Of a DNA stretch of 64,000 bases, positions 8,423-31,581 are shown in pieces (the stretch's first letter is position 1; every line of letters begins with the position of its first letter). This DNA is from Flavobacteriales bacterium (GTDB taxonomy: Bacteria > Bacteroidota > Bacteroidia > Flavobacteriales_F > PHOS-HE28), in NCBI GenBank assembly GCA_041747675.1, contig JBGTES010000002.1, forward strand, positions 66,538 to 130,537, read 5' to 3'. The notes below the pieces were generated by a model. It was not told the DNA's origin and ran no database searches. It worked only from the letters and a program-made list of their open reading frames with translations. Both the position numbers and the translations under genes were made by a program.

Positions 8423-11400
8423 TTAGAAATTCTGCAGATCGAGTGGCCTGAGCGTGCCGAACCATTTGATCACTTTCTCGCCCACGTTCGGAACATCCAC
8501 ATGGCATATGTACACTCCGCCCGCGATCGGGATGTTGTTGGCATTCTTCAGGTCCCAATCCAGGTAGGTGAGGTCATTGTCCTTGCGGAACTTCCGCACC
8601 AGCGTGCCGCTCACGTTGTAGATCGAGATCGTACACGTTTGCGGCAGGTTGATGAACTTCACACGGTTATCCAGGCGCGAGGTCTCATAGCCACTGAAGG
8701 CATTGTAGGGGTTGGGCACGATGTTGATCATGGCCAAGGCCTCATTCGCTACTTCGGCCACACCGGTCTCCGTGGCGAAGCCGAGCGTGCTGAACCCATA
8801 CAGCGGCAGTCCATTGTTGCGCTCGGGCTGGATCGGGGAGAGTGAGCCCGGGTAATCCACATACCGCGTGTACTTACGCTCCACGTTCAACACGATGCGC
8901 ACATCGGTCTCCAGCAGTTGGCGACCGGGTGCCACCATGGCGCTGCCCACCCAGCCCACGGCACGGAACACACGGCGCAAGGGTTCTGGCTGGGTGCTTT
9001 GGATGGTCTGGTAAATGAAGCGACACTCGTCGTAACCCGGAATACGCTGTTCGGAGTTGGCCACACCGGCCGACTGGCGACGATCGTTCTTGAACACATA
9101 GATCCAGTGACTTCCGCCGAAGACAGGTTCACCAGCCCCGGTGAGCAGTTCATCGCTGGGATTCCAGATCATGTCACGTCCGATCTCACCACCCCAGAAA
9201 CTGTTCTCCCCGTAAGCCATGTTCAGGCGCTCACCGGTCTCCAGGTCGATCGCATAGCCAGGGAACCAACCGGCACCCGTGGGTTGCTCACCGCCCAGGG
9301 TGGCTTCATCGTTGTTGGCCCCGGGAGTACCGGCTTTGCGGCCGTCCTTGTCGATGCTGGGTGAGGCACGCAGCTGCAATTTACCCGCACCACCTTCGCT
9401 GAGAGCGGTATTGTCCTCCTGCTCCAGCACCACCGCACGGCTCCACTTGCTCTTGTCCTTGGTGATCACCAGTTGGATGCTCGGGGTCTCATGCAGGAAG
9501 GATGCGCTATTCTGAGTGAGGGAGACCTGCTGGTTGTTGCTTGGCTGGAATGGCGCCTGGCCCACCAGTGCCCACGGCGCCCATGTACCGCCCAGGATGT
9601 TCTCGTACCACTGCTGGTCATCACGACCAGTACGGTCATTGTAGATGGGAACATCAGGGAAGGTCTGCGTGCCGGAGCGGATCCAGTTCTGGTCGATCGG
9701 ACCCTCTGTGTCCGGAATGCCCGTGAACCAGGGCTTGGAGGGATCCTGGAAAGTGATCGTCCCCGTGCCGATCGGACGCGTGGTCGAGTTGTTGTTCCCA
9801 TCGCGGGGGTAGTTCACCTGGCCGATGGTCACCGAGATGCCCCAGTCTGGCAGCAACTGCTCATACAGCAGGTCGATCGCCCGATCACTGTTCACTGTGA
9901 CCCCGGAATTCAGGTTGGTGATGTACCAGTACGCATCATCGAGGTTGCCCGGCGTGGCCGTATCCTGGAACCAGACTTCGAATGCTGCCTCTGGCACGCT
10001 CAAGGGGTCCACGATCTTCACATCGATCGGGCCGGCATTGCGCCGATAGAGCAACTCGTCGCTCCGCCAGGGTGGCCCGGCCATGATGGCATTCTCGGAC
10101 TCCGGTGTCAGTTCGAGCCGCAGGCCACCATTGCCCGCACCCTCGTAGCGCGTCACCTGCAGACGATCGCCGAACTGGGCGTTCTGAATGGTGCCGCCGT
10201 TGGCCGGGTCGGGTTTGTGGGGGATACCCACATAGGAGCGGATCGCCCCGAAAGCGGCCTTGCGGCCTGCCACATACCGGAAGGCCTGCCCTGTTCCTCC
10301 GAATGGGTCGAACTCCTCGAAGTTGTTGTAGCCGTATGTGATTGCCAGATAGTAGTAGGATTTGAAGTTCACCAGACGGCGGTCGCCTTGTGCGAACTCG
10401 TCCTCCGTGATCTGAATGGCGTGCTCGATGCCTTCATCTGCTCCGGCCACCATCTCACGCGGCACGGTCAGGTCCAGGGTCGGATCGTAGAGGTAGTTGA
10501 TGATCTGCCCCACCCCATCCTCTACGTCGGCCTGGTACACCAACCGAGCCTTGGATACATCCTCGATATCGGACACGCTCACCGTGGCATCCTTCAACTG
10601 GTAAAGCTTGTAGCCCTGGAAACGGTAGAACCGGTCGTACGGATTGCCATCCACATCCTCCTCAGGGATCGTGGGGTCCAACTCCTCGTACATCTCGTTC
10701 TCGTTGTTGCTGCCCGGCGGATTGATCAGATAGATGACCAACTCGCGGTCGAACTCACGTATGTCCAGATCAGGTGCGTCAGGGCCATCCAGGATCTTGA
10801 AGCAATTGTCGAACAGAGCCTGGGCCTTGTCATCGGCCAGGCGCAGCAATTCCACACTGGCCACTGCCCCTCCTTGCGAGGCACGGGCGTATACCACACC
10901 CACGGTCACGTTGTTGTAAGCACCAGGTTCCAGGGTGAAAGGGCCTGCACTTTGGGCGAAGCGGCGGTCCGGCTGGGCGGGCGTCTGCTCCAATTCACGC
11001 CAGTCCGCCTGTGGTACGCAATCGGTACCCCAACCCACCGGGTCGGAGCTCCAGGGGAACATGTAGAAGGCCCGCGTAGCGTTGGGGTCCTCGCTGTATC
11101 CGTTGCCACCGTAGCTCTGTGGGCGGTTGTTCTTCCAGATGGAACGCAGGTAGTTGTAAAAGTGCGTAGCGTTGGATGGGTCGGTCAGGTTGGGATTTCC
11201 CTCGCGATTGAAGTAGATGAAGGCGCGCATGCCGAAGCGCTCATTATCCGCCTTGCCATCGCCATAGCCGATGCCGATACCGCCGTATGGGATGCCACCC
11301 AACTGCTGGTATTCCTGGCAGCTCAGGTTTTGATCCGGGCCCGGGTTATCAGTGCCGTCATAATCCTGGAAGGGACCCTCGAAGAAGTCGACCCCGATGG

Positions 11401-21585: not shown

Positions 21586-22551
21586 TCAACGCATGACCAC
21601 CACGCGGGAGGAACCCAGCACACCCACTGACGAGATGGCCTGCATCACATAGGTGCCGGCGGGAAGTCCGGATAGGTCGAGCCAGCCGACGCCATCAGTG
21701 CCTTCGGGGATCCGCGTTTCCAGGACGGCCCGTCCCATGGCATCCAGCAGGAGGAACCGATCGGCACCCCGTACATCTCCATCAAAGGTCACGCGCAACG
21801 GACCATTGGTGGGGTTGGGGGCCACAGCGAACGCAGGGGTCGTCGTTGCAGCGTCGATGCCTTGCACGATACCCGTGATGAACCCTTCACTGTGGATGCC
21901 ACCTTCCCAGGATGCGGCGATGACCACTTCCTGGCCTTCGCTAAAGAGCTGCGCCTCGCATCCACCGCCACCCGACACTTCCAGGGCGTAGCAGCTTGCT
22001 GGGTCCAGCATCACCCACTGATCCTGGTCTTCCGCGCTGGCATAGGGACCACCCTGCACCACGGGCTGCCCCAGTGCATTGATCACGCGCCAGGTGGTGG
22101 TGTACGCGACGGGGCCGGGGACCACCACTTGCACCAGAAAACTCTCGGCGGTGGAAGGTGGATCTTCCACAATAAGTGAAAGGATGTTGCCCGAAGCATC
22201 CTCATCCGGGTTTCCGTTCACGCTGATGATATGGAACTCCAGCACATCACCGGCCTGAACATCGTTCACCGCGGGAAGGGCGGGGTTGCGCGACTCGTCC
22301 GGCTCCGCTTCCACGGGGAGCTGCCAGTCGAAACTACCCACGTGTAGACCGTTCTTCCAAGTATCCACCACGCAACTGCTCATGGCGGCCGCGCCGGTGT
22401 TCTTGATCGTCACCACCGGCGTGAAGATCCCGTCGCATACATAGCGCAGGCCCTTGTAGCGCACGAAGGATGCATCGTAGGTGAACTGCGCCACGGCGTG
22501 GAATGGTGCGCTCAGAAGGAAGGACAAAAGGATGGTATTGAAGTGCTTCAT
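21586..22551 (-). CDS. Secreted protein with T9SS type-A C-terminal sorting domain (hypothetical)
   Basis: Signal peptide. C-terminal about 80 aa (VAPNPTNGPLRVTF...LLLDAMGRAVLE...LDLSGLPAGTYVMQAISSVGVLGSSRVVVMR) fits the type-A CTD. Lies 110 nt downstream of the riboswitch-controlled TBDR on the same strand. Confidence 0.65.
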   Translation of the reverse strand: MKHFNTILLSFLLSAPFHAVAQFTYDASFVRYKGLRYVCDGIFTPVVTIKNTGAAAMSSCVVDTWKNGLHVGSFDWQLPVEAEPDESRNPALPAVNDVQAGDVLEFHIISVNGNPDEDASGNILSLIVEDPPSTAESFLVQVVVPGPVAYTTTWRVINALGQPVVQGGPYASAEDQDQWVMLDPASCYALEVSGGGGCEAQLFSEGQEVVIAASWEGGIHSEGFITGIVQGIDAATTTPAFAVAPNPTNGPLRVTFDGDVRGADRFLLLDAMGRAVLETRIPEGTDGVGWLDLSGLPAGTYVMQAISSVGVLGSSRVVVMR

Positions 22552-22660: not shown

Positions 22661-25063
22661 TCACCACCGCACCACCACCCCGCCCAGCACATGGAAGGGC
22701 GCCTGCGGGAAGAGGCCCACCATGTCCTGGCGTGTTCCGCCTTCGACGAAGCTGTACACCCAGCCGTTGTTCTCGTACAGCTCGCTGAAGAGGTTGCGCA
22801 ACGTGAGGTTGAGGTCGATCGATCGCATGCCCTTGAAGCGCAACAGCGATACGTTGAAGCGCAGGTCGTGTACCAGGAAGGGATCCAGCATGCGGTCGCG
22901 GCTGGCGGTGTTGTCCAGGTACTGCTCGCCCACGTACTTGGTCACGAAGGCCACATCGCCCTGGCCCTTCCCGGGCTTGTCCCAGAAGCGGAAGCCCAGC
23001 TCGCTGCCTACGACGATCGATGGCGAGAAGGCGATGTCCGTGTCCCCCACTGCGCGCTCCACCTGCCCGCCATTGTCCCAGTCATCGAGGAACTCGGTGA
23101 AGCCCTTGATGCGGTTGCGGCTGAAGGCGGCGTTGGCGCGCCACACCAGCCGGCGTGTGAGTTGCGTGGTCCAGGTGAGCTCGGCGCCGGCACGGTAGCT
23201 CTCGGACACGTTGGTGCGCAGCGGATAGCCCACGTCATTCAACTCACCTGTGAGAACCAGCTGATCGGTGTAGTCCATGTAATACAGGTTGATACCCCCG
23301 GCGAAGCGGCCGCTGCGGCGCTCGTAGCCCAGCTCGTAGTCGATCATGCGCTCGTGTGTGGGACGGCTCTGCGGGCTGCTTTCGATCAGGTCGCGGCGAT
23401 TGGGCTCGCGGTTACCCACGGCCACGCTGGCATAGACGCGGCCTCCCTCATGCGCCTTCCATTGCACACCGCCCTTCGGGTTGAAAAAGGTCCAGTCGGC
23501 CTCCTGCGTCACGTTCTCCAGGTCGTTGTTGAAGCCAAGGAAGTCGTGCGTGACGGTGCGCAGCTGTGCATCGGTGAAGAGATCCACACGATCGTTGACC
23601 ACATAGTTGAACTTGGCGAAAGCATTGCCGTCCGTCTTGGTGCCTGTGTTGTCGTAGTAGCGTTCGCGGATGTCACTTTCACCGGCCCAGCGCGCCCAGA
23701 TCACCTCGCCGAAGTGGTCGTTGCTGTAGTGGCTGTAGCTGCCGCCCAGCACCAGCTTGTGCGCGCCCAGGCGCTGCTCCAGCGTCACGTTCACGCCGTC
23801 CAGCGTGTTGTCCAGCCAGCGGCGGCGGATCAGGTCGCTCCGCGTGATGGTGGTGTCTCCGACAACGATCGGTGTGATGCCATAGTTGCTCAAGGGATCG
23901 TCGTCCCGGAACTGCTCAAAGAAGCCCGTACCCAGTACGCGGAACAGGGTGATGTTGAGGTTGGCGTGCTCACTCAGTTCCTGGTCGAAGAGCAACTGGT
24001 AATGCGTCTGCTGGTAGTCGTCCACCTGGTTGTCGTAGTTGTAAGGATTGAAGGTGCGGTTGGTGTCAAGCACTTCGCGTGGCACGCCTTCCCAGGCCTG
24101 GTAGGTGACCTCCTTGCCGCTCATGGTGAAGAAGCGCAGCGAACGTTTCTTGCCCAGCCATGCCGCCTGGAACTGGTAGCTGCGCAGGTCAGCGGTGGCG
24201 CGATCGATGTAGCCGTCGCTGCTGATGCTGCTGAGCCGTCCATCGATGGAGAAGGCACCCGCTTCGCCGCCCTGGTTCATGAGCCCCGTGCCGAAGCGCG
24301 CGTTGTAGCGCTGCGTGTTGAAGCTGCCTCCGAAGGCGCTGATCTCGCCAAAAGCTTCCTTGCGGATGGCCGCGCTGCGCATGTTGATGCTGGCCCCGAA
24401 AGCGCCCGGCCCGTTGGTGCTGGTGCCCACGCCACGCTGGATCTCGATGTCCTCCAAGCCGCTGGCCAGATCGGGCATGTTCACCCAGAACACGCTCTGG
24501 CTCTCGGGGTCGTTGATGGGCACACCGTTGAGGGTGACGTTGATCCGTGTGGCATCACTACCGCGGATGCGCAGGCCGGTGTAGCCGATGCCCGTGCCCG
24601 CATCGGTGGTGGTGACCACACCGGGTTGCTGATCGAGCAAGATGGGCAGGTCCACCCCGGTGTTGATGCGGTCCAGTTCCTCGCGCGTCACCTTGCTCAC
24701 GGCGAAGGGCGCACGGTCGCCAGCGCGCAGTGCGGTCACCTCGGCCTCGCGCATCAGCACCAGGTTCGGCAGCATACGCAGGTTGAAGCTGTTCTCGCCG
24801 GAGGCAAGCTCAAGCAACGTATCCACCGGCAGGTAGCCGATGTACGACAACCGAAGTCGCAGTGCGCCGGAACGCAAACCGCCGATGGCAAAACGGCCTT
24901 CACGGTCGGTGCTGGTGCCGAAGCGTTGTTCATCGCCCACGATGAGGCTCACGCCATCGAGCGGGGAATCGCCTTCGCCGGTGATGGTGCCCGAAAGGCG
25001 TGTCTGGGCGTGCGTGGAAAGGGCCAGCAGTGTGGCCGCGAACAGGGTGTACATGATCTTCAT
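22661..25063 (-). CDS. TonB-dependent receptor, candidate thiamin / thiamin-derivative outer-membrane transporter
   Basis: 800 aa. Signal peptide, CarboxypepD_reg-like N-domain, plug (TQRYNARFGTG...), beta-barrel ending aromatic ...VVVRW. ATG verified at 25063-25061. Immediately preceded by a TPP riboswitch. Confidence 0.85.
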   Translation of the reverse strand: MKIMYTLFAATLLALSTHAQTRLSGTITGEGDSPLDGVSLIVGDEQRFGTSTDREGRFAIGGLRSGALRLRLSYIGYLPVDTLLELASGENSFNLRMLPNLVLMREAEVTALRAGDRAPFAVSKVTREELDRINTGVDLPILLDQQPGVVTTTDAGTGIGYTGLRIRGSDATRINVTLNGVPINDPESQSVFWVNMPDLASGLEDIEIQRGVGTSTNGPGAFGASINMRSAAIRKEAFGEISAFGGSFNTQRYNARFGTGLMNQGGEAGAFSIDGRLSSISSDGYIDRATADLRSYQFQAAWLGKKRSLRFFTMSGKEVTYQAWEGVPREVLDTNRTFNPYNYDNQVDDYQQTHYQLLFDQELSEHANLNITLFRVLGTGFFEQFRDDDPLSNYGITPIVVGDTTITRSDLIRRRWLDNTLDGVNVTLEQRLGAHKLVLGGSYSHYSNDHFGEVIWARWAGESDIRERYYDNTGTKTDGNAFAKFNYVVNDRVDLFTDAQLRTVTHDFLGFNNDLENVTQEADWTFFNPKGGVQWKAHEGGRVYASVAVGNREPNRRDLIESSPQSRPTHERMIDYELGYERRSGRFAGGINLYYMDYTDQLVLTGELNDVGYPLRTNVSESYRAGAELTWTTQLTRRLVWRANAAFSRNRIKGFTEFLDDWDNGGQVERAVGDTDIAFSPSIVVGSELGFRFWDKPGKGQGDVAFVTKYVGEQYLDNTASRDRMLDPFLVHDLRFNVSLLRFKGMRSIDLNLTLRNLFSELYENNGWVYSFVEGGTRQDMVGLFPQAPFHVLGGVVVRW

Positions 25064-25104
25064 CTTCCTCCGTGTTGGTCGTCATCGCACGGAGGCGCCC
25101 ACTC

Positions 25105-25200
25105 AAGTGGGATCGGTTCTTCCTTGGCAGCATTACCTGCCCAGGTTCTGCGGGTGTGATCTCAGCCGGCCTATTGGCGGGCACCCCGGGGATGACGGGG
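25105..25200 (-). promoter_or_regulatory. TPP (thiamin pyrophosphate) riboswitch, THI-box aptamer with RBS-sequestering expression platform
   Basis: Minus-strand read: CCCCGGGGUGCCC-GCCAAUAGGCCGG-CUGAGA-UCACACCC-GCAGAACCUGGGCAGGUAAUGCUGCC-AAGGAAG. This aligns block-for-block with the E. coli thiM aptamer (GGGGUGCCC...CUGAGA...ACCC...ACCUGAUCUGGAUAAUGCCAGCGUAGGGAAG). Downstream 8-bp stem CCUCCGUG...CACGGAGG (25093-25066) occludes a GGAGG 3 nt before the AUG at 25063. Confidence 0.75.
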
Positions 25201-25271
25201 CGAAGGTAATCAGATGATGGGGCGATCAGATGATCAGATGATGGGGGCTGATCGATGCGCCTCCCACCCCA

Positions 25272-25925
25272 TCAACTCGCCGCCCCGCGCATCATCGCCT
25301 CCACCACATCCACCGCCTTCTGCACGCGCTCCTCAGGGTCGCCTTCGATGATCACGTAAGGGAAGCCGTAGGCCTTCAGCTCGCGCTCCCACACGTCGAA
25401 CAGCCGGTCGCGGTCGTGCGGGTTCTCGCGCTGCGGGTCGGGCTCCCAGGGGATGTCCGGCCGGCAGAGCAGGCGCAGGTCGTACCTCAGCACACGCACC
25501 AAGTGTTCGATCTCCGGGTGTACCTGTCCGAATTTCTCCTGGCTCCAGATCTTGATGTTGAGAATGTCGGTGTCGAAGAACATCGGCTTGCGGGGTGCGC
25601 GCCTGGCGATCGGGTCCTTGCCATGAATGGCCTGGTGGTGTTCCTCACCGAACCGGGCCGCATCGCCGAACCACTGCGCATGGCCCCGGGCCATCTCCAC
25701 CAGGTCCTCTTCGTTGTAGGGCCGGTCCAGTTCATCGAGGTACTCGCGCGTGGCGTCCCCGACGTATCCGCCCATGGTGCGGAACATCAGTTGCTCGGCG
25801 AGGGTGGTCTTGCCAGAGCTCTCGGGGCCTACGATCGCGATGCGCAAGGGCAGCCTGTTCTGTTGGGAGAGCCAAGTTATCGAGCTGGCGGAAATGAAAT
25901 GTTGGTATCGCCATCCGCAAGGCAA
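25272..25925 (-). CDS. NadR-type (AAA_28) P-loop kinase, ribosylnicotinamide-kinase-like, paralog 1
   Basis: Walker A IAIVGPESSGKTTLAEQL, Walker B-like FFDTDILN. Overall architecture of the NadR C-terminal RNK domain. Confidence 0.65.
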   Translation of the reverse strand: MPCGWRYQHFISASSITWLSQQNRLPLRIAIVGPESSGKTTLAEQLMFRTMGGYVGDATREYLDELDRPYNEEDLVEMARGHAQWFGDAARFGEEHHQAIHGKDPIARRAPRKPMFFDTDILNIKIWSQEKFGQVHPEIEHLVRVLRYDLRLLCRPDIPWEPDPQRENPHDRDRLFDVWERELKAYGFPYVIIEGDPEERVQKAVDVVEAMMRGAAS

Positions 25926-25951
25926 GACCTGAAGGGGGTCGAACGCATCGC

Positions 25952-26548
25952 TCAGTTGGTCGCGCCCCGCAGCATCGCCTCCACGATGCTCACCGCCTTG
26001 CTCACCCGGTGCTCATGGCTGCCTTCGATGATCACGTATGGGAAGCCGTAAGCTTTCAGTTCACGCTCCCAAACGGCGAAGATCCGGTCGCGGTCAAGCG
26101 GCGGCACGCGCAGCGGGTCGGGCTTCACCGCAAAGTCCGGCCGGCAGAGGAGGCGCAGGTCGTACTTCAGCTCGCGCACCAGCCGCTCGATCTCCGGATC
26201 TACGCGGCCGAACCGCTCCAGGCTGAGGATCTTCAGGTTGAGGATGTCCGAGTCGAAGTAGGTGGGTTCCAAGGGCACGCTCTGGCCGATCACGGGGTCG
26301 TCGCCATGGATGATCTCCCAGTACTCTGCCGCCAAACCGGGGACACTCTGGAACCATTGGGCCTGGCTGTACGCCATCTCCAGGAGATCCTCCTCGGTGT
26401 GGCGCTCCTCCTCCTCGTCATCCACGTACTCGTGTGTTCCATCCGAGATGCGCCCACCACCCAGGCGCAGCATCAACTCATCGGAAATGGTGGTCTTCCC
26501 GCTGCATTCGGGTCCCACGATGGCGATGCGGACAAGTGTGATCGACAT
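25952..26548 (-). CDS. NadR-type (AAA_28) P-loop kinase, ribosylnicotinamide-kinase-like, paralog 2
   Basis: IAIVGPECSGKTTISDEL, YFDSDILN. About 50% identical to the adjacent paralog, with strongly conserved C-terminal halves (KYDLRLLCRPD...RDRIF.VWERELKAYGFPYVIIEG). ATG at 26548. Confidence 0.65.
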   Translation of the reverse strand: MSITLVRIAIVGPECSGKTTISDELMLRLGGGRISDGTHEYVDDEEEERHTEEDLLEMAYSQAQWFQSVPGLAAEYWEIIHGDDPVIGQSVPLEPTYFDSDILNLKILSLERFGRVDPEIERLVRELKYDLRLLCRPDFAVKPDPLRVPPLDRDRIFAVWERELKAYGFPYVIIEGSHEHRVSKAVSIVEAMLRGATN

Positions 26549-26653
26549 GGGTCGAGGTGATCGGTGCGGTGGCCACAAGATAACTTTCCACCACAGGCAG
26601 GCAGCGGAACGCCCATCCCGCGCGTCGATGGAATAGACCCTGACCCCGGTACC

Positions 26654-28504
26654 ATGATGCGCACCCTACTCCTCCCGATCGCCCTTTCGTTCGCATGTGG
26701 CACTCAAGCCCAACTCGGCCCTTGCACGGAAGCTCCCATCGCAGCCCACCTGTTGGAAGTGAATGCGCAGTGGTCCCAATTGGATCCGATGGCATTAGGA
26801 AGTACAGCACCTACCTCCTTCCACAATGACACTGAACGCATCGCCACGCACCTCTATATGGTCCACGACCGTCTCCTGGAACGTATGCCGGAAGGGCTCT
26901 CGGCCGATCAACAAACGAAACGGATGCGTTCGCTCGAGCGCCTGACACACTATGCCAACGATCAGCGTTTCCCGAAGAACAACATCCTGCCCTATCGCAA
27001 TCCGGTCTTCATCGATCCGAACGGAACAGCCTGTGCAGTGGGCTGGCTGATGATCGAAAGCGGGCACCACGCGCTTGCCGAGGAGATCAGCACATCGATG
27101 AACCTGGCCTATGTGCTGGAGATGCCCGGCTCCCCACAATGGCCTGCGATCTCATCTTGGGCTATGGAGCATGGCTTCAACGCGGAGGAACTGGCCTGGA
27201 TCCAGCCGGGTTATGCCCCCAACATTCCCTGGATCGCGCTGGGGGGGGGCACGAACGGACCCGTGCATGTGCTGCATAGTCTCGCCAATGGCGAGTTGCT
27301 TGTGGCGGGTGACTTCACCGAAGCGGGCGGCGTGCTGGCCCAGCGCGTGGCCATCTGGGATGGCGACAACTACATCGCCCTTGGTGGCGGGCTGCAGGGG
27401 GAAGTCGCCTGTGCCGTGGAATTCGAAGGATCCATCTACGTCGGTGGCATGTTCCTCAATGGTCCGGAGGACCTGGCCCGATGGGACGGCACATCATGGA
27501 GCTTCAGCACAGTGTTCGATGGAAAGCTGCCGCGCATCACCGCCCTGCATGTGCATGACGGCAGGCTCCATGCAGCGGGTTCCATCATGGGATTCGCTGG
27601 CGAGACCTTCCAGGTGATGCATCGGGAAAATGAACAGTGGTCCGTTCTCGGCGATCCTTTCAACGATCAGATCTTCGCCATGACCACCTTCAACAATGAA
27701 CTGGTGGCCGGTGGTGCCTTCACCCAGCCGGTCTCCGAGATCGATCCGCTCATGCTGCGTGTGGCACGCTACGATGGTTTCGGCTGGGCCCAGCTCGCCG
27801 ATGGTCTCGATGCCGTGGTGCGATGCTTCGCGCAGATGGATGGGAAACTTTACGCCGGGGGCGACCTGTATGCCGCTGAGGAGGAACCCGCTTTCGGTCT
27901 TGCACGCATCGCGCCCTTGGCGGATACCTGGGAGCACCTGCTGCCCAACCACCCCATTTACATGCCGCTGGACGAGGAATGGAGTGTGCAGCCCAAGTGG
28001 ATCGCTGCCCTGGCCGTGCAGGACGATGCCCTTTACTTCGGCGGCGAATTCCCCCTGTTCGAAGGCTTCGATGTTGTCGGCAGCCATGTCGGGCAGTTCC
28101 ATGCACCGGACCAAACCTCCGTGCTGGCTCCGATCTTCCCACCGGTCCATGCCCTGGCGATGTATGACTGGCGCCTTGTTCGCGGTGGTGAGTTCTGGTC
28201 TCCCATACCCTACGTGGCCATCACCGATATGACCATGGGCACAGGACCGTCCCCAGGGATGCCTACCACCACGATGTGCTATCCCAATCCCGCCGAAGAC
28301 CAGCTGGTGGTGGTACTGCCTGAAGGGATGCGCGACCTGCGTGCCTGGGTCGTGACCAACGTGCAAGGTCAACGGGTATCGCCGCCCACGGTAGGCACTG
28401 GTGATGGCCTGCGGATCGATGTATCCGCTTTGGCCGCCGGGATGTACCAGGTGACGATGCTCGTGGATGAACACTCCATGACCACCACGTTTCTGAAAGA
28501 ATAG
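26654..28504 (+). CDS. Secreted beta-propeller protein with T9SS type-A C-terminal sorting domain
   Basis: Signal peptide MMRTLLLPIALSFACGTQAQ. Repeated blade-like units (GDFTEAGGV..., ARWDGTSWS..., ARYDGFGWAQ...). C-terminal CTD CYPNPAEDQLVVVLPEG...LRIDVSALAAGMYQVTMLVDE...TTFLKE. Confidence 0.65.
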   Translation: MMRTLLLPIALSFACGTQAQLGPCTEAPIAAHLLEVNAQWSQLDPMALGSTAPTSFHNDTERIATHLYMVHDRLLERMPEGLSADQQTKRMRSLERLTHYANDQRFPKNNILPYRNPVFIDPNGTACAVGWLMIESGHHALAEEISTSMNLAYVLEMPGSPQWPAISSWAMEHGFNAEELAWIQPGYAPNIPWIALGGGTNGPVHVLHSLANGELLVAGDFTEAGGVLAQRVAIWDGDNYIALGGGLQGEVACAVEFEGSIYVGGMFLNGPEDLARWDGTSWSFSTVFDGKLPRITALHVHDGRLHAAGSIMGFAGETFQVMHRENEQWSVLGDPFNDQIFAMTTFNNELVAGGAFTQPVSEIDPLMLRVARYDGFGWAQLADGLDAVVRCFAQMDGKLYAGGDLYAAEEEPAFGLARIAPLADTWEHLLPNHPIYMPLDEEWSVQPKWIAALAVQDDALYFGGEFPLFEGFDVVGSHVGQFHAPDQTSVLAPIFPPVHALAMYDWRLVRGGEFWSPIPYVAITDMTMGTGPSPGMPTTTMCYPNPAEDQLVVVLPEGMRDLRAWVVTNVQGQRVSPPTVGTGDGLRIDVSALAAGMYQVTMLVDEHSMTTTFLKE

Positions 28505-28601
28505 GGAGGTTCCAGCCATGATCGGATGATGTGCGGGCCGATCGCCCCAATGGACCCTGGACGAACGATCTCGTGCATGGCGTGTTCCTTTGTGTCCGTA
28601 T

Positions 28602-29285
28602 ATGGAACGCTTCCTCTACCTGGGCCTTGTTGTGTTCAGCATCAGCTTTCCGCTGCTGGCCAGCTTCGAGCCACGCATCCGCTTCCACCGCAAATGGCCG
28701 GGCTTGTTCCTGGGCATCGCCGTCATGGCATTGGTGTTCCTGATATGGGATGCGTTGTTCACCGCGCACGGTGTGTGGGGCTTCAACCCTCGCTACCTGG
28801 TGGGACCGCACCTGTTCGGCATGCCCATCGAAGAGTGGTTGTTCTTCCTGATGATACCTTATGCCTGCGTGTTCCTCTACGAGGTGATGCGCTACTATGT
28901 CAGGCGTGATCTGCTGGGACCATTGGCCAGGCCCTTCAGTATCATATTGATGATCGCGCTTGTGGTCATCGGGACACTGAACCTGGATAAGCTGTACACA
29001 TCCATCACCTTCCTGAGCACCGCAGTCTACCTCGCTTTCGTTGTATTCGTGCTTCGGCCCAACTGGCTGGGGCGCTTCTACATCGGCTACGCAGTAAGCC
29101 TGATCCCCTTCTTGTTGGTGAATGGTCTGCTCACCGGCTGGCTGCTGGAGGAGCCGGTGGTGTGGTACAATGATGCGGAGAACCTCGGCATCCGCCTGGG
29201 GACCATTCCCGTGGAGGACAGCATCTATCTCTTGTTGATGCTGTTGATGGTGGTCACCTTCTACGAGCGGCCGCTGAAGCGCTGA
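28602..29285 (+). CDS. Lycopene cyclase domain protein (CrtYcd-type small membrane cyclase)
   Basis: 227 aa, 6-7 TM helices. PxEE(W/F) motifs (MPIEEWLFFLMIPY and TIPVEDSIYLLLM) are characteristic of the heterodimeric/fused lycopene cyclase domain. ATG at 28602; the track start is TTG. Confidence 0.7.
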   Translation: MERFLYLGLVVFSISFPLLASFEPRIRFHRKWPGLFLGIAVMALVFLIWDALFTAHGVWGFNPRYLVGPHLFGMPIEEWLFFLMIPYACVFLYEVMRYYVRRDLLGPLARPFSIILMIALVVIGTLNLDKLYTSITFLSTAVYLAFVVFVLRPNWLGRFYIGYAVSLIPFLLVNGLLTGWLLEEPVVWYNDAENLGIRLGTIPVEDSIYLLLMLLMVVTFYERPLKR

Positions 29286-29862
29286 GCAAGCCCGAAGAGC
29301 CCCGCCATTGCCGGTGCCACCGCAGCAGGGCCGCCACCGAAAGGCCCACGTACACGGCGTACAAACCCGCGTAGGCATATAGTTCCAGCAGGATGTAGAG
29401 CACGATGGCGGCGAGGTCCGTGACGATCCACCAGGCCCAGTTCTCCAGGATCTTGCGTGCCAGCATCCACGTGGCCAACAGGCTGAAGGCCGTGACCGAC
29501 GCATCGAGGCCGACGTGCTGGCCATCGGGCCAGACGCGCGCGGCATGATACAGAAGCACTGCGGCCATGGTCCCTGCGAGCAGTATCAGCAGATGGAAGA
29601 TCGGGCCCCGCCGGGTGATGGGCAGTTCGCCGCCGCGCCCCTGCCCCCATTGCCACCAGCCGTAGGCCCCCATCAGGACATAGAAGGCATTGAGGCCCAC
29701 TTGTGCATACACCTGGAGATGCCAGAACAGTACCACCCCCAATGCCGAGGCCCCGATGCCGAAGAGCCAGCCAATGCGCCGCTCGTATAGCATCAGCACC
29801 GTGTAGGCGAGATTGCCCGCCACGGCAAGGAGTTCGATGTGGGTGTAGGAGGACAAGGGCAA
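29254..29862 (-). CDS. pnuC: PnuC-family vitamin transporter (NR, thiamin PnuT or riboflavin PnuX type; specificity unresolved)
   Basis: TM1 aligns with E. coli PnuC (LSSYTHIELLAVAGNLAYTVL vs LSWIEAVGTIAGLL). Conserved YGWWQW motif and ILENWAWWIVTDLAAIVLY. No in-frame ATG ahead of TM1. Candidate TTG starts at 29862 and 29856; the track start at 30006 is also TTG. Confidence 0.7.
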   Translation of the reverse strand: MPLSSYTHIELLAVAGNLAYTVLMLYERRIGWLFGIGASALGVVLFWHLQVYAQVGLNAFYVLMGAYGWWQWGQGRGGELPITRRGPIFHLLILLAGTMAAVLLYHAARVWPDGQHVGLDASVTAFSLLATWMLARKILENWAWWIVTDLAAIVLYILLELYAYAGLYAVYVGLSVAALLRWHRQWRGSSGLLSASAAARRR

Positions 29863-30019
29863 AAGATGAATAGGGAAAAGGGAAAGGAAGGTTGAAGGTT
29901 GAAGGTTAAAGATCTGGGTCGAGGGTCGCTCAGCTACCAAGAAGTGATCGGCACCCTGCTGACAACAGCCAAGACCCCACCCCAACAGAACTCCGCACTG
30001 GGACAATGCCCGATCATCC

Positions 30020-30622
30020 CTACATCCCGCAATTACAGGGCTGCGAGAAGAAGATCTTCGCTTTGGGGAGCAGTTCCTCGATGCGGTCCATCTCGGGTTG
30101 TTCCATTTGGATCGCCCGCAGGTCGAAGAAGCGAAGTGCCTTCATGCCCTCGATCTCGTCGGGAAACTCCGCCAGGTCGTTGCTCCACAAGTCCAATGAG
30201 ATCAGTTCGGAAAGCTTGCCCATGCACTTGGGCAGCCCGCGGATCTGGTTGCGGCTCATGTCCAGGCGCTTGAGGTGGCGCATTTTGCAGATGGTCTTGG
30301 GGATCGTTTGCAGCTTGTTGCGCGAGATCCGCAGCTCCTGCATGTGCTCCAACTCGCCGAACCAATCCGGCAGTTCGCGCAGGCGGTTGCCGGAAAGGTC
30401 CAATGCGTTGAGATCCTTGAATCCGCGCACTTCTTCGGGCACGGTCTTCAGTTTGCGGCCGCTGAGATCCAGGCGGTACACCGGTCCATCATGTTTCAGG
30501 GCGCGCTCCATACTGCGGAAGGTGCGCACCGAGTCCAGCGCTGACTGCGACAGCAATTGTGCCTGGCCGGAGAGACCATGCGCCAGGCAGGCGATCAACA
30601 GTATGTGGGTGATCTTCTTCAT
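30020..30622 (-). CDS. Secreted leucine-rich-repeat (LRR) protein
   Basis: Signal peptide, then about 6 LRR units (LDLSGNRLRELP, LRISRNKLQTIP, LDMSRNQIRGLP, LDLWSNDLAEFP). ATG at 30622 overlaps the ribF stop (ATGA). Confidence 0.75.
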   Translation of the reverse strand: MKKITHILLIACLAHGLSGQAQLLSQSALDSVRTFRSMERALKHDGPVYRLDLSGRKLKTVPEEVRGFKDLNALDLSGNRLRELPDWFGELEHMQELRISRNKLQTIPKTICKMRHLKRLDMSRNQIRGLPKCMGKLSELISLDLWSNDLAEFPDEIEGMKALRFFDLRAIQMEQPEMDRIEELLPKAKIFFSQPCNCGM

Positions 30623-31581
30623 TCCTTGTCGATCCGGTGTGCCATGGCCTGCTCACGGTCGCGGCCCAGTTGTTCGCGCAGGCCATCCAGCCCATCAAAG
30701 CGCATATCGCCACGTATCCTCTCCACAAAACGCACGTTGATCGCCTCGCCGTACAGATCCCGTTCCCCTGTTCGGTATTCGTCGGCCAGGCCGAAGATAT
30801 TCACCTCCACTACTTGTTGCCCCGCCGCGCCAGGTACTGTGGGTCGCTGGCCGATGTACAGCATACCCTGGAAGATACCCTCGCGCAGTTCCACCGCCAC
30901 TACGTACACCCCCTCGCCCGGCACCAGCTTGTGCGGATCGATGGCCCCGATATTGGCCGTGGGATAGCCCAGGGTCCGTCCCAACTGGTCGCCCTTCACC
31001 ACCACGCCGCTGAGCGGATAACGGTAGCCCAGCAGTTCATTGGCTGTTGCCACATCACCCTGGGTCAGCGCATGCCGCACCTTGGTGCTGCTCACGGTGA
31101 TATGGTCCACCTCATGGGCGGGGATCTCCACCACCTGGAAGCCATGCAACGGGGCCATCCGCTCCAGCATGGGCAGGTCGCCTGCGCGGTCGCGCCCGAA
31201 GCGATGGTCGTGGCCGATCACCACCGCATGCACGCCGATGGATCTCACCATCACATTTCGAACGTATTCCTCCGCCGCCATGTTGGAGAAGGCCCGCGAG
31301 AAGGGTACCACAAGCAGGTGGTCCAGTCCGGTGTGGTCCAAGAGCGCTGCCTTCTCCTGTGGCGTGTTCAGGAGCTTCAGGTCGGTGTGCTCGGGGAAGA
31401 GCACCATGCGCGGGTGGGGGTGGAAGGTGAAGAGTACGCTCTCGCCACCTTCCCTTTTTGCCATGGCCGTAAGGCGCTCCAGTACCATGCGATGGCCCCG
31501 ATGCACACCGTCGAAGGTGCCCGTGGTGAGCACAGGACGCGTGACATCACGGAAAGCCGACAGGTCGGTGTGGATGCGCAT
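30619..31581 (-). CDS. ribF: Bifunctional riboflavin kinase / FAD synthetase
   Basis: FMN adenylyltransferase N-domain (LTTGTFDGVHRGHR) and riboflavin kinase C-domain (GYPTANI...). ATG verified at 31581-31579; the track ORF extends 55 aa further upstream. Confidence 0.9.
   Translation of the reverse strand: MRIHTDLSAFRDVTRPVLTTGTFDGVHRGHRMVLERLTAMAKREGGESVLFTFHPHPRMVLFPEHTDLKLLNTPQEKAALLDHTGLDHLLVVPFSRAFSNMAAEEYVRNVMVRSIGVHAVVIGHDHRFGRDRAGDLPMLERMAPLHGFQVVEIPAHEVDHITVSSTKVRHALTQGDVATANELLGYRYPLSGVVVKGDQLGRTLGYPTANIGAIDPHKLVPGEGVYVVAVELREGIFQGMLYIGQRPTVPGAAGQQVVEVNIFGLADEYRTGERDLYGEAINVRFVERIRGDMRFDGLDGLREQLGRDREQAMAHRIDKE

Follow-up and report, generated by a model that had tools for sequence, protein, structure and literature searches.

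Tandem NadR-type kinases and a Pnu-family transporter linked to a riboswitch-preceded TonB receptor in Flavobacteriales: a predicted uptake module for thiamine or a vitamer

Introduction

Transporters of the Pnu family work by facilitated diffusion, the cargo being trapped by a kinase, and pnu genes co-localize with those of kinases (PMC5749112). Among gut Bacteroidetes, thiamine operons of the type OMthi-pnuT-tnr3 occur, including BT2390 and BT2396-BT2397 of B. thetaiotaomicron (PMC5613172). The subject of this study is a group of genes in a Flavobacteriales bacterium (GCA_041747675.1), located on the minus strand at ~21.5-31.6 kb of a 64,000-nucleotide (nt) stretch of contig JBGTES010000002.1 (hereafter the window), which encodes two standalone kinases of the AAA_28 family (designated K1 and K2), a Pnu-family transporter, and a TonB-dependent receptor whose gene is preceded by a thiamine pyrophosphate (TPP) riboswitch. 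From sequence comparisons we think it somewhat probable that this region is a local, rearranged version of a Bacteroidota uptake module for thiamine or for a vitamer such as hydroxymethylpyrimidine (HMP), with a kinase trapping the cargo. The DNA of the window has a G+C content of 60%, and its closest relatives are uncultured Flavobacteriales.

Most aquatic bacteria are unable to make vitamin B1, and Bacteroidota are among its major consumers; the assignment of genes for uptake and activation therefore decides how metagenomes and metatranscriptomes are read. In one study, omr1 and "pnuC" were counted together as Bacteroidetes B1-uptake genes (PMC12442306). An earlier reading of the window (the original prediction) had proposed a vitamin-salvage neighborhood, and had considered its context to back nicotinamide riboside (NR), thiamine and riboflavin alike. 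Here, we weigh these three cargoes against one another.

Materials and methods

We compared the window with (i) a genome set, obtained by searching a profile of the kinase against one genome per species and taking the 80 best-matching loci, and (ii) a metagenome set of 80 further loci, obtained by searching a profile of the Bacteroidales-type PnuC against metagenome contigs. This comparison covered 160 loci, which are identified below by L numbers. Neighboring genes were identified by clustering of open reading frames, followed by hidden Markov model searches on stop-to-stop reading frames and a motif search for the TPP core. The lineage of each locus was taken from the label of its record.

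Results

Gene order across Bacteroidota

The kinase, transporter, riboswitch and receptor genes recur together well beyond the window. Within the genome set, 61 of the 80 loci have a pnuC-like gene 5' of the kinase in the same orientation, directly abutting it in 29 of the 80, and in 42 of the 80 a TPP aptamer core and a homologous TonB receptor lie 3' of the kinase in that orientation, mostly immediately downstream. The 42 loci are labeled Flavobacteriales, Cryomorphaceae, Crocinitomicaceae, Cyclobacteriaceae, Roseivirga, Cytophagia, Chitinophagales and Saprospiraceae, and thus represent at least four orders. The recurrent same-strand order is pnuC-like gene, AAA_28 kinase, TPP riboswitch, TonB receptor. 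Likewise, the kinase directly follows pnuC in 55 of the 65 metagenome loci of sufficient extent, often with overlapping reading frames. The placement of the receptor and its riboswitch varies: they are adjacent downstream in L108, L150, L153 and L162, divergent upstream in L148, and ~6.5 kb distant in L149, L161 and L165, with insertions intervening in L008, L025, L055 and L058. That such varied placements are all found near the pnuC-kinase pair indicates that the linkage has survived rearrangement. The proposal of a vitamin-salvage neighborhood is thus upheld, in that the kinases, PnuC and the riboswitch-receptor unit form a module kept across Bacteroidota orders.

The window carries a rearranged form of this order. 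On its minus strand the genes are transcribed in the order ribF, a gene for a leucine-rich-repeat (LRR) protein, pnuC, K2, K1, the TPP element, the TonB receptor, and a gene for a 321-amino acid (aa) protein with a sorting tail of the type IX secretion system (T9SS). Consistent with the original prediction, the two standalone AAA_28 genes lie in tandem upstream of the riboswitch-receptor unit, as established by matches to PF13521 and RF00059, and the PnuC-family gene ends the ribF-LRR-pnuC cluster, 2.7 kb from the kinases. In the Flavobacteriales branch to which the window belongs, pnuC and the kinase have been separated by insertion of a gene for a DUF5122 protein, often together with a lycopene-cyclase-domain gene. 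An apparently undisturbed Flavobacteriales arrangement is kept at L044 (ribF, LRR, pnuC, kinase, riboswitch, receptor).

The riboswitch and the receptor promoter

The TPP element of the window scored 38.3 bits (E=2e-5) against RF00059 in an E-value search of a 2-kb slice, relative to an Rfam gathering score of 54.3, and a scan of the whole window at the gathering threshold returned no riboswitch, this element included. We nevertheless judge it to be a genuine riboswitch, because its positional orthologs pass the gathering score (73.2 bits in L063, 58.0 in L071, 56.7 in L046 and 54.4 in L056), because the core is invariant, and because base pairs have changed in a compensatory manner. The core GGGGUGC...CUGAGA...ACCC...ACCUG...UAAU...GGGA is kept, with 26 invariant columns in an alignment of 37 sequences; the consensus fold recovers P2 and P4/P5, and three pairs are changed on both sides.

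An exact TAnnTTTG, which we take to be the Bacteroidetes -7 promoter consensus, is found 18-24 nt before the GGGG of the aptamer in 27 of 43 loci (at 40 nt in L032 and L087), and most of the remaining loci carry a one-mismatch box of the same form as that of the window, TACCTTCG. A scan with a sigma-70 model, which is ill-suited to Bacteroidota, found no promoter. Because the -7 box is kept just upstream of the aptamer, we conclude that the receptor is transcribed from its own predicted promoter and that TPP control is limited to the receptor and whatever comes after it; no TPP element was found by motif search upstream of pnuC or of the kinases. The original prediction would have been refuted by independent transcription of genes unrelated to vitamin availability. 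Independent transcription does apply to the receptor, whereas the link to vitamin availability is unbroken. On the 3' side of the aptamer a potential hairpin, CCUCCGUG/CACGGAGG, was recognized by eye over the GGAGG just before the ATG, although it is absent from the minimum-free-energy fold. No site resembling a terminator was reported in the stretch from the aptamer to the receptor start codon, and we infer that the riboswitch acts at translation.

Two further features of this region were observed. The spacer between K1 and the riboswitch, immediately upstream of the predicted -7 box, is filled by direct repeats of CCCCATCATCTGAT (25246-25233 and 25222-25209, minus strand) with an extra CATCTGAT between them, the whole spanning 25209-25246. 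In three Cyclobacteriaceae-like loci (L036, 10557-10764; L061, 10579-10758; L108, 1658-1797) two TPP cores precede the receptor, and these may be tandem riboswitches.

The transporter

When used alone as a query against PDB the PnuC of the window misses the PnuC structure 4QTN, which is found (E=1.8e-27) by a profile of its Bacteroidota homologs. In transmembrane helix 6 the transporter carries the motif WxxW(x)3D/N as WAWWIVTD, ending in aspartate. A terminal aspartate (WxxWxxxD) is present in ~90% of the Bacteroidota homologs of the genome set and in 72 of 80 of the metagenome set, and the corresponding residue of PnuT (D166) is required for thiamine binding (PMC5749112). Both verified NR carriers instead end in asparagine (WLLWVIIN in E. 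coli, WALWIVVN in N. mucosa), although with two NR references the residue is a weak discriminator. We therefore predict that the transporter is PnuT-like, a carrier of thiamine or of a vitamer; PnuT is known here from its described motif, and the assignment among PnuC, PnuT and PnuX was made by motif and context.

Two kinase-less PnuC homologs with the asparagine motif were also encountered (L110, 7854-9058; L125, 7992-8834). Both are convergent with a NUDIX hydrolase gene in the vicinity of pth, rplY and prs, and may represent the genuine NR-type carriers of the phylum.

Evidence bearing on the cargo

The comparison of the 160 loci favors thiamine over NR and riboflavin, as judged by the predicted functions of neighboring genes. 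A small protein of 82-87 aa is encoded before the pnuC-kinase pair in 33 of 71 metagenome loci and in 5 genome loci. It is a member of the Thiamine_BP/YkoF superfamily, matching PF01910 in 18 of 20 members (best E=1e-7) and PF07615 in 14 of 20, and its profile finds the structures 2IBO (E=2.4e-4), B. subtilis YkoF 1S7H (E=4.2e-4) and 2EKY (E=6.9e-4) in PDB. A ThiE/TenI-like gene precedes the pair in L047 (PF02581, 37.8 bits) and, by a weak match, in L079, and its clustered homolog is divergent upstream of pnuC in L063. Further, in L145 a kinase-less PnuC with the aspartate motif abuts a bona fide thiamine pyrophosphokinase (TPK; PF04263, 84.5 bits; PF04265, 39.5 bits). No family of NAD metabolism was enriched, or even recognized, among the neighbor families of the pair that were inspected at these loci. 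The context thus does not back three vitamins equally, as had been proposed: the thiamine associations are several and independent, NAD families are not enriched, and the ribF association is confined to Flavobacteriales.

This last association is what recommends riboflavin uptake, in which the Pnu protein would be a PnuX/RibM-type carrier co-transcribed with ribF, and flavokinase would trap riboflavin. The ribF-LRR-pnuC cluster is tightly packed, with the LRR start overlapping the ribF stop by 4 nt and a gap of 13-163 nt (according to the start codon chosen) between the LRR gene and pnuC; ribF lies upstream of pnuC in 15 loci, and the LRR gene is likewise found between the two in nine Flavobacteriales loci. 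We consider this explanation very improbable nonetheless. The 15 loci, out of 61, are all labeled Flavobacteriales, the orthologous pnuC of other orders abuts an AAA_28 kinase with ribF not nearby, no flavin mononucleotide (FMN) riboswitch was found in the window at the gathering threshold, and ribF is a universal housekeeping gene.

In seven Cytophagales loci (L042, L049, L056, L057, L066, L074 and L077), a gene for a 194-215-aa protein that begins with MSSHHIVR follows the receptor (15300-15947 in L049), sometimes behind a ROK-family gene. Some source names call this protein a thiamine pyrophosphokinase, a name that likewise points to thiamine. The 215-aa form has no match in Pfam, NCBIfam or PDB, and a homolog, when looked for in the window, was absent.

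Relationship of the kinases to NadR

The kinase-family profile matches the ribosylnicotinamide kinase (RNK) domain of NadR in 1LW7 (E=9.9e-16, residues 172-348 only) and in 8X7F (E=5.3e-15), making this NR-kinase domain the nearest relative by homology, and the best NCBIfam hits of the kinases are nadR models. A tryptophan at position 134 and an aromatic residue at 101 (tryptophan in K1, phenylalanine in NadR) are common to NadR RNK and the K1-type kinases. In the structure of the NadR kinase domain described in PMC7221760, the active site is empty.

These relationships bear on the main rival to uptake of thiamine or a vitamer, namely canonical NR salvage. Here PnuC would carry NR, and K1 and K2 would make nicotinamide mononucleotide (NMN) for NAD synthesis, for example via an NMN deamidase; the thiamine receptor and the YkoF-like and ThiE-like neighbors would be explained as a general "vitamin island". 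We regard NR salvage as rather unlikely, and grant it this much because homology-based annotation favors it. Besides the matches to NadR structures and models and the shared aromatic residues, NR salvage is classically exemplified by a pnuC next to an RNK-type kinase, JGI labels the relatives "nicotinamide riboside kinase", and the transporter passes the PnuC equivalog cutoff of TIGR01528 (55.7 against 42.45 bits), a model that may fail to separate the Pnu subfamilies. Further, since the riboswitch lies 3' of the kinase with a -7 box before it, the kinase and pnuC are predicted not to be TPP-regulated, and they need not be co-transcribed with the receptor. Set against NR salvage, neither NAD genes nor NMN adenylyltransferase domains nor NAD regulators were recognized in the 160 loci inspected, where several thiamine-related families are present, and the transporter motif has aspartate in place of the asparagine of the verified NR carriers. 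K1 and K2 are standalone proteins without the NMN-adenylyltransferase and helix-turn-helix (HTH) domains of NadR, and they score far under the cutoff of the NadR model TIGR01526 (66.6 against 341 bits). Their LID segment, DPxRENPxDRDRLF, is also unlike that of NadR, DGLRSLGSxxxRxxF.

Apart from the points shared with NR salvage, several observations weigh against uptake of thiamine or a vitamer. The receptor is not nearby in about half of the genome loci and in most Bacteroidales-type loci. Shared ancestry accounts for part of the synteny within Flavobacteriales, which is hence not independent evidence. The residue ending the transporter motif agrees imperfectly with context, as two PnuCs of the asparagine type are still accompanied by a kinase and, in L072, the asparagine motif occurs together with a YkoF-like gene. 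Finally, the Cytophagales clusters described above hold an AAA_28 kinase in addition to a TPK-like gene, leaving the need for a second kinase unexplained.

The tandem kinases

K1 and K2 are encoded head-to-tail on one strand rather than back to back, and their sequences are 60% identical overall, with 49.5% identity across the N-terminal halves and 70.8% across the C-terminal ones; the ~50% identity and near-identical C-terminal halves first described do not hold. Their longest identical run is one of 18 aa, VWERELKAYGFPYVIIEG, which is conserved throughout the family. Gene conversion as an explanation for this run was dismissed, as its codons differ synonymously between K1 and K2 and it is conserved family-wide. 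K1 is 99% identical to the 191-aa protein P0001. Both kinases keep Walker A, GPE(S/C)SGKT, Walker B, FFDTD/YFDSD, and the LID arginines, LR...DRDR.

The K2 clade is small, comprising P0035, P0036, P0040, P0041, P0044 and the second kinase of L008, where the K2 ortholog is not adjacent to K1. It is nested, on a long branch, within the K1 lineage, and the duplication was therefore recent and lineage-specific. Residues derived across the clade include a change of RPY to EERH as well as W101L, W134V, E141V and N142P, at sites that are invariant, or nearly so, elsewhere. Walker A, Walker B and the DR(D/E) motif are retained. When the same genomes were compared, orthologs of K1 were 87% identical and those of K2 75-81%, and the ratio of nonsynonymous to synonymous substitution rates (dN/dS) was 0.10-0.17 for K1 and 0.16-0.22 for K2. 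The candidate explanation that K2 is a decaying pseudogene was rejected, given its intact frame and a dN/dS of ~0.2. We conclude from these comparisons that K2 is a constrained functional paralog, remodeled near the LID and in the segment following Walker B, and that a changed substrate is plausible. An NR kinase paired with another kinase, as first suggested for the tandem genes, is not the likeliest option, since NR kinase activity is improbable even for K1, the ancestral copy.

One might instead suppose a mixed or incidental arrangement, in which the transporter is a PnuT and the kinases are unrelated to its cargo, or K2 is a noncatalytic regulator, with adjacency reflecting inherited gene order. 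The separate-looking transcription units, the Cytophagales clusters with a TPK-like gene, and the absence from K2 of residues conserved in the family are all compatible with such an arrangement. We find it improbable, as a kinase directly after pnuC, at the frequencies given above for both sets, is the arrangement typical of a transporter and its partner kinase, and K2 has kept its Walker motifs and LID arginines under the constraint just described.

A separate clade of AAA_28 proteins was found in Cyclobacteriaceae and Roseivirgaceae (L053, L064, L065, L069, L075, L080, L081 and L084), with neither pnuC nor the receptor nearby. Several of these kinase genes adjoin an amine-oxidase-like gene and a gene for a major facilitator superfamily transporter. 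These proteins may represent a second, functionally distinct paralog.

Other features of the locus

The coordinates of the features discussed are collected in Table 1. The lycopene-cyclase-domain gene overlaps pnuC convergently by 32 nt at their 3' ends; elsewhere, in L003 (156-4582), such a gene lies beside carotenoid genes (Caroten_synth and an amine-oxidase-type desaturase) and a transposase. The DUF5122 gene is probably a lineage-specific insertion outside the module. Its homolog (cluster c3) is transcribed away from the kinase in 31 loci of the genome set, which form one Flavobacteriales branch, and is absent at all loci of that set labeled Cytophagales, Chitinophagales, Saprospiraceae or Bacteroidales. 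At L007 the DUF5122 gene is still divergent from the kinase, though the 8-kb flanks hold neither pnuC nor receptor.

Downstream of the receptor, the 321-aa protein has homologs of its N-terminal ~200 aa encoded right after the receptor in L009, L013 (two copies), L014, L023 and L028. It possibly belongs to the riboswitch-controlled unit. Other vitamin receptors of Bacteroidota have accessory proteins, and the 321-aa protein could likewise assist its receptor by capturing the vitamin at the cell surface.

Genes of the nucleotidyltransferase toxin-antitoxin type were found just 3' of K1 in L001/L008 (an NTase_sub_bind and NTP_transf_2/Polbeta pair, 8619-9297 in L001) and in L003 (a Polbeta gene, 9332-9634). 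In L001/L008, where the contig includes the riboswitch, this pair separates it from K1.

Table 1. Features of the window, with homologs of the 321-aa protein at other loci
Feature	Position	Strand	Evidence or remark
ribF, bifunctional riboflavin kinase/FAD synthetase	30619-31581	-	FAD_syn + Flavokinase; TIGR00083 238.8 bits; housekeeping
Secreted LRR protein, 200 aa	30020-30622	-	LRR_8 67 bits; signal-like N-terminus
Pnu-family transporter, predicted PnuT-like	29254-29856	-	PF04973 136.2 bits
Lycopene-cyclase-domain membrane protein, inserted gene	28590-29285	+	PF18916 149 bits
DUF5122 beta-propeller protein, T9SS tail	26564-28504	+	Between pnuC and K2
K2, standalone AAA_28 kinase, 198 aa, ATG start	25952-26548	-	PF13521 62.7 bits
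K1, standalone AAA_28 kinase, 191 aa, TTG start	25272-25847	-	PF13521 96.4 bits
Candidate Bacteroidetes -7 promoter box TACCTTCG	25201-25208	-	One mismatch to TAnnTTTG
TPP riboswitch aptamer, short-P3 variant	25104-25198	-	RF00059 38.3 bits
TonB-dependent receptor, Omr1/OMthi-like by context	22661-25063	-	Plug PF07715 51.4 bits; barrel PF00593 71.1 bits; CarboxypepD_reg
321-aa protein, T9SS C-terminal sorting tail	21586-22551	-	TIGR04183 Por_Secre_tail 25.5 bits
Homologs of the 321-aa protein	L009 9675-11078; L013 11450-12436, 12457-14646; L014 13265-14251; L023 13158-15242; L028 13091-15547		

Discussion

For uptake of thiamine or a vitamer, the explanation that we favor, the steps would be as follows. 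The TonB receptor would carry the vitamin through the outer membrane, its expression from its own promoter being shut off by the TPP riboswitch at high TPP. The Pnu protein would then allow the vitamin to diffuse through the inner membrane, as for PnuT, and K1, standing in the place of the thiamine pyrophosphokinase of OMthi-pnuT-tnr3 operons, would phosphorylate it, so that the product stays inside and enters TPP synthesis. In the Flavobacteriales lineage of the window, pnuC and the kinase have been separated by two unrelated inserted genes, pnuC has come to follow ribF and the LRR gene, and the kinase has been duplicated, with K2 a functional, remodeled paralog that probably acts on a different substrate. 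The substrate proposed for each protein, like the trapping role of the kinases, is a prediction from sequence and gene context. A broader proposal, that the standalone NadR-RNK-fold kinases of environmental Bacteroidota are an unrecognized class of thiamine or vitamer kinases, with K2 retuned to a second vitamer, is one that we put forward tentatively, as a serious possibility short of a probable one. Among the papers covered by a literature search, none links AAA_28 or NadR-like kinases with thiamine.

Were this explanation true, AAA_28 kinases would fill the "which kinase?" gap at loci where the transporter has no adjoining TPK gene, and a widespread annotation as NR salvage would be corrected, such that thousands of genes named "PnuC" or "nicotinamide riboside kinase" would stand for vitamin-B1 uptake. 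The kinase fold of NadR would have been recruited to a second cationic vitamin, and would provide a third, non-homologous way to trap Pnu cargo, after TPK and ThiK. The regulatory layout of the module is also unusual, with the energy-costly outer-membrane receptor alone behind the riboswitch.

Four described systems invite comparison. The PnuC-NadR systems of E. coli, Salmonella and Haemophilus likewise pair a Pnu carrier with a kinase of the NadR-RNK fold, with diffusion followed by phosphorylation. The locus described here differs in that it has no NMN adenylyltransferase or HTH domain and no NAD genes or regulators nearby, its transporter motif ends in aspartate rather than asparagine, and its neighbors are thiamine related. 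The partner kinase of PnuT in Proteobacteria has a different fold. With PnuT of S. woodyi, a characterized thiamine facilitator compared here by motif only, our transporter shares the seven-helix Pnu core and the WxxW(x)3D motif, whose aspartate serves thiamine binding (PMC5749112). The YkoF/MTH1187 (UPF0045) thiamine/HMP-binding proteins belong to the same superfamily as the small protein encoded before the pnuC-kinase pair at related loci, although the latter is a single-domain protein of 82-87 aa with weak Pfam matches, and is absent from the window itself.

The closest resemblance is to the OMthi-pnuT-tnr3 operons, which also combine, in Bacteroidota, a TonB receptor under a TPP riboswitch with a Pnu carrier and a cytoplasmic kinase (PMC5613172). 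The kinase here, in contrast, has the P-loop AAA_28/NadR-RNK fold and is not a thiamine pyrophosphokinase. The order is also different, being pnu, kinase, riboswitch, receptor, with only the receptor behind the riboswitch, and in the window two inserted genes separate pnuC from a kinase that has been duplicated. The best-supported reading is thus of an architecture as in the known OMthi-pnuT-tnr3 operons, in which the new part would be a kinase of the NadR-RNK fold.

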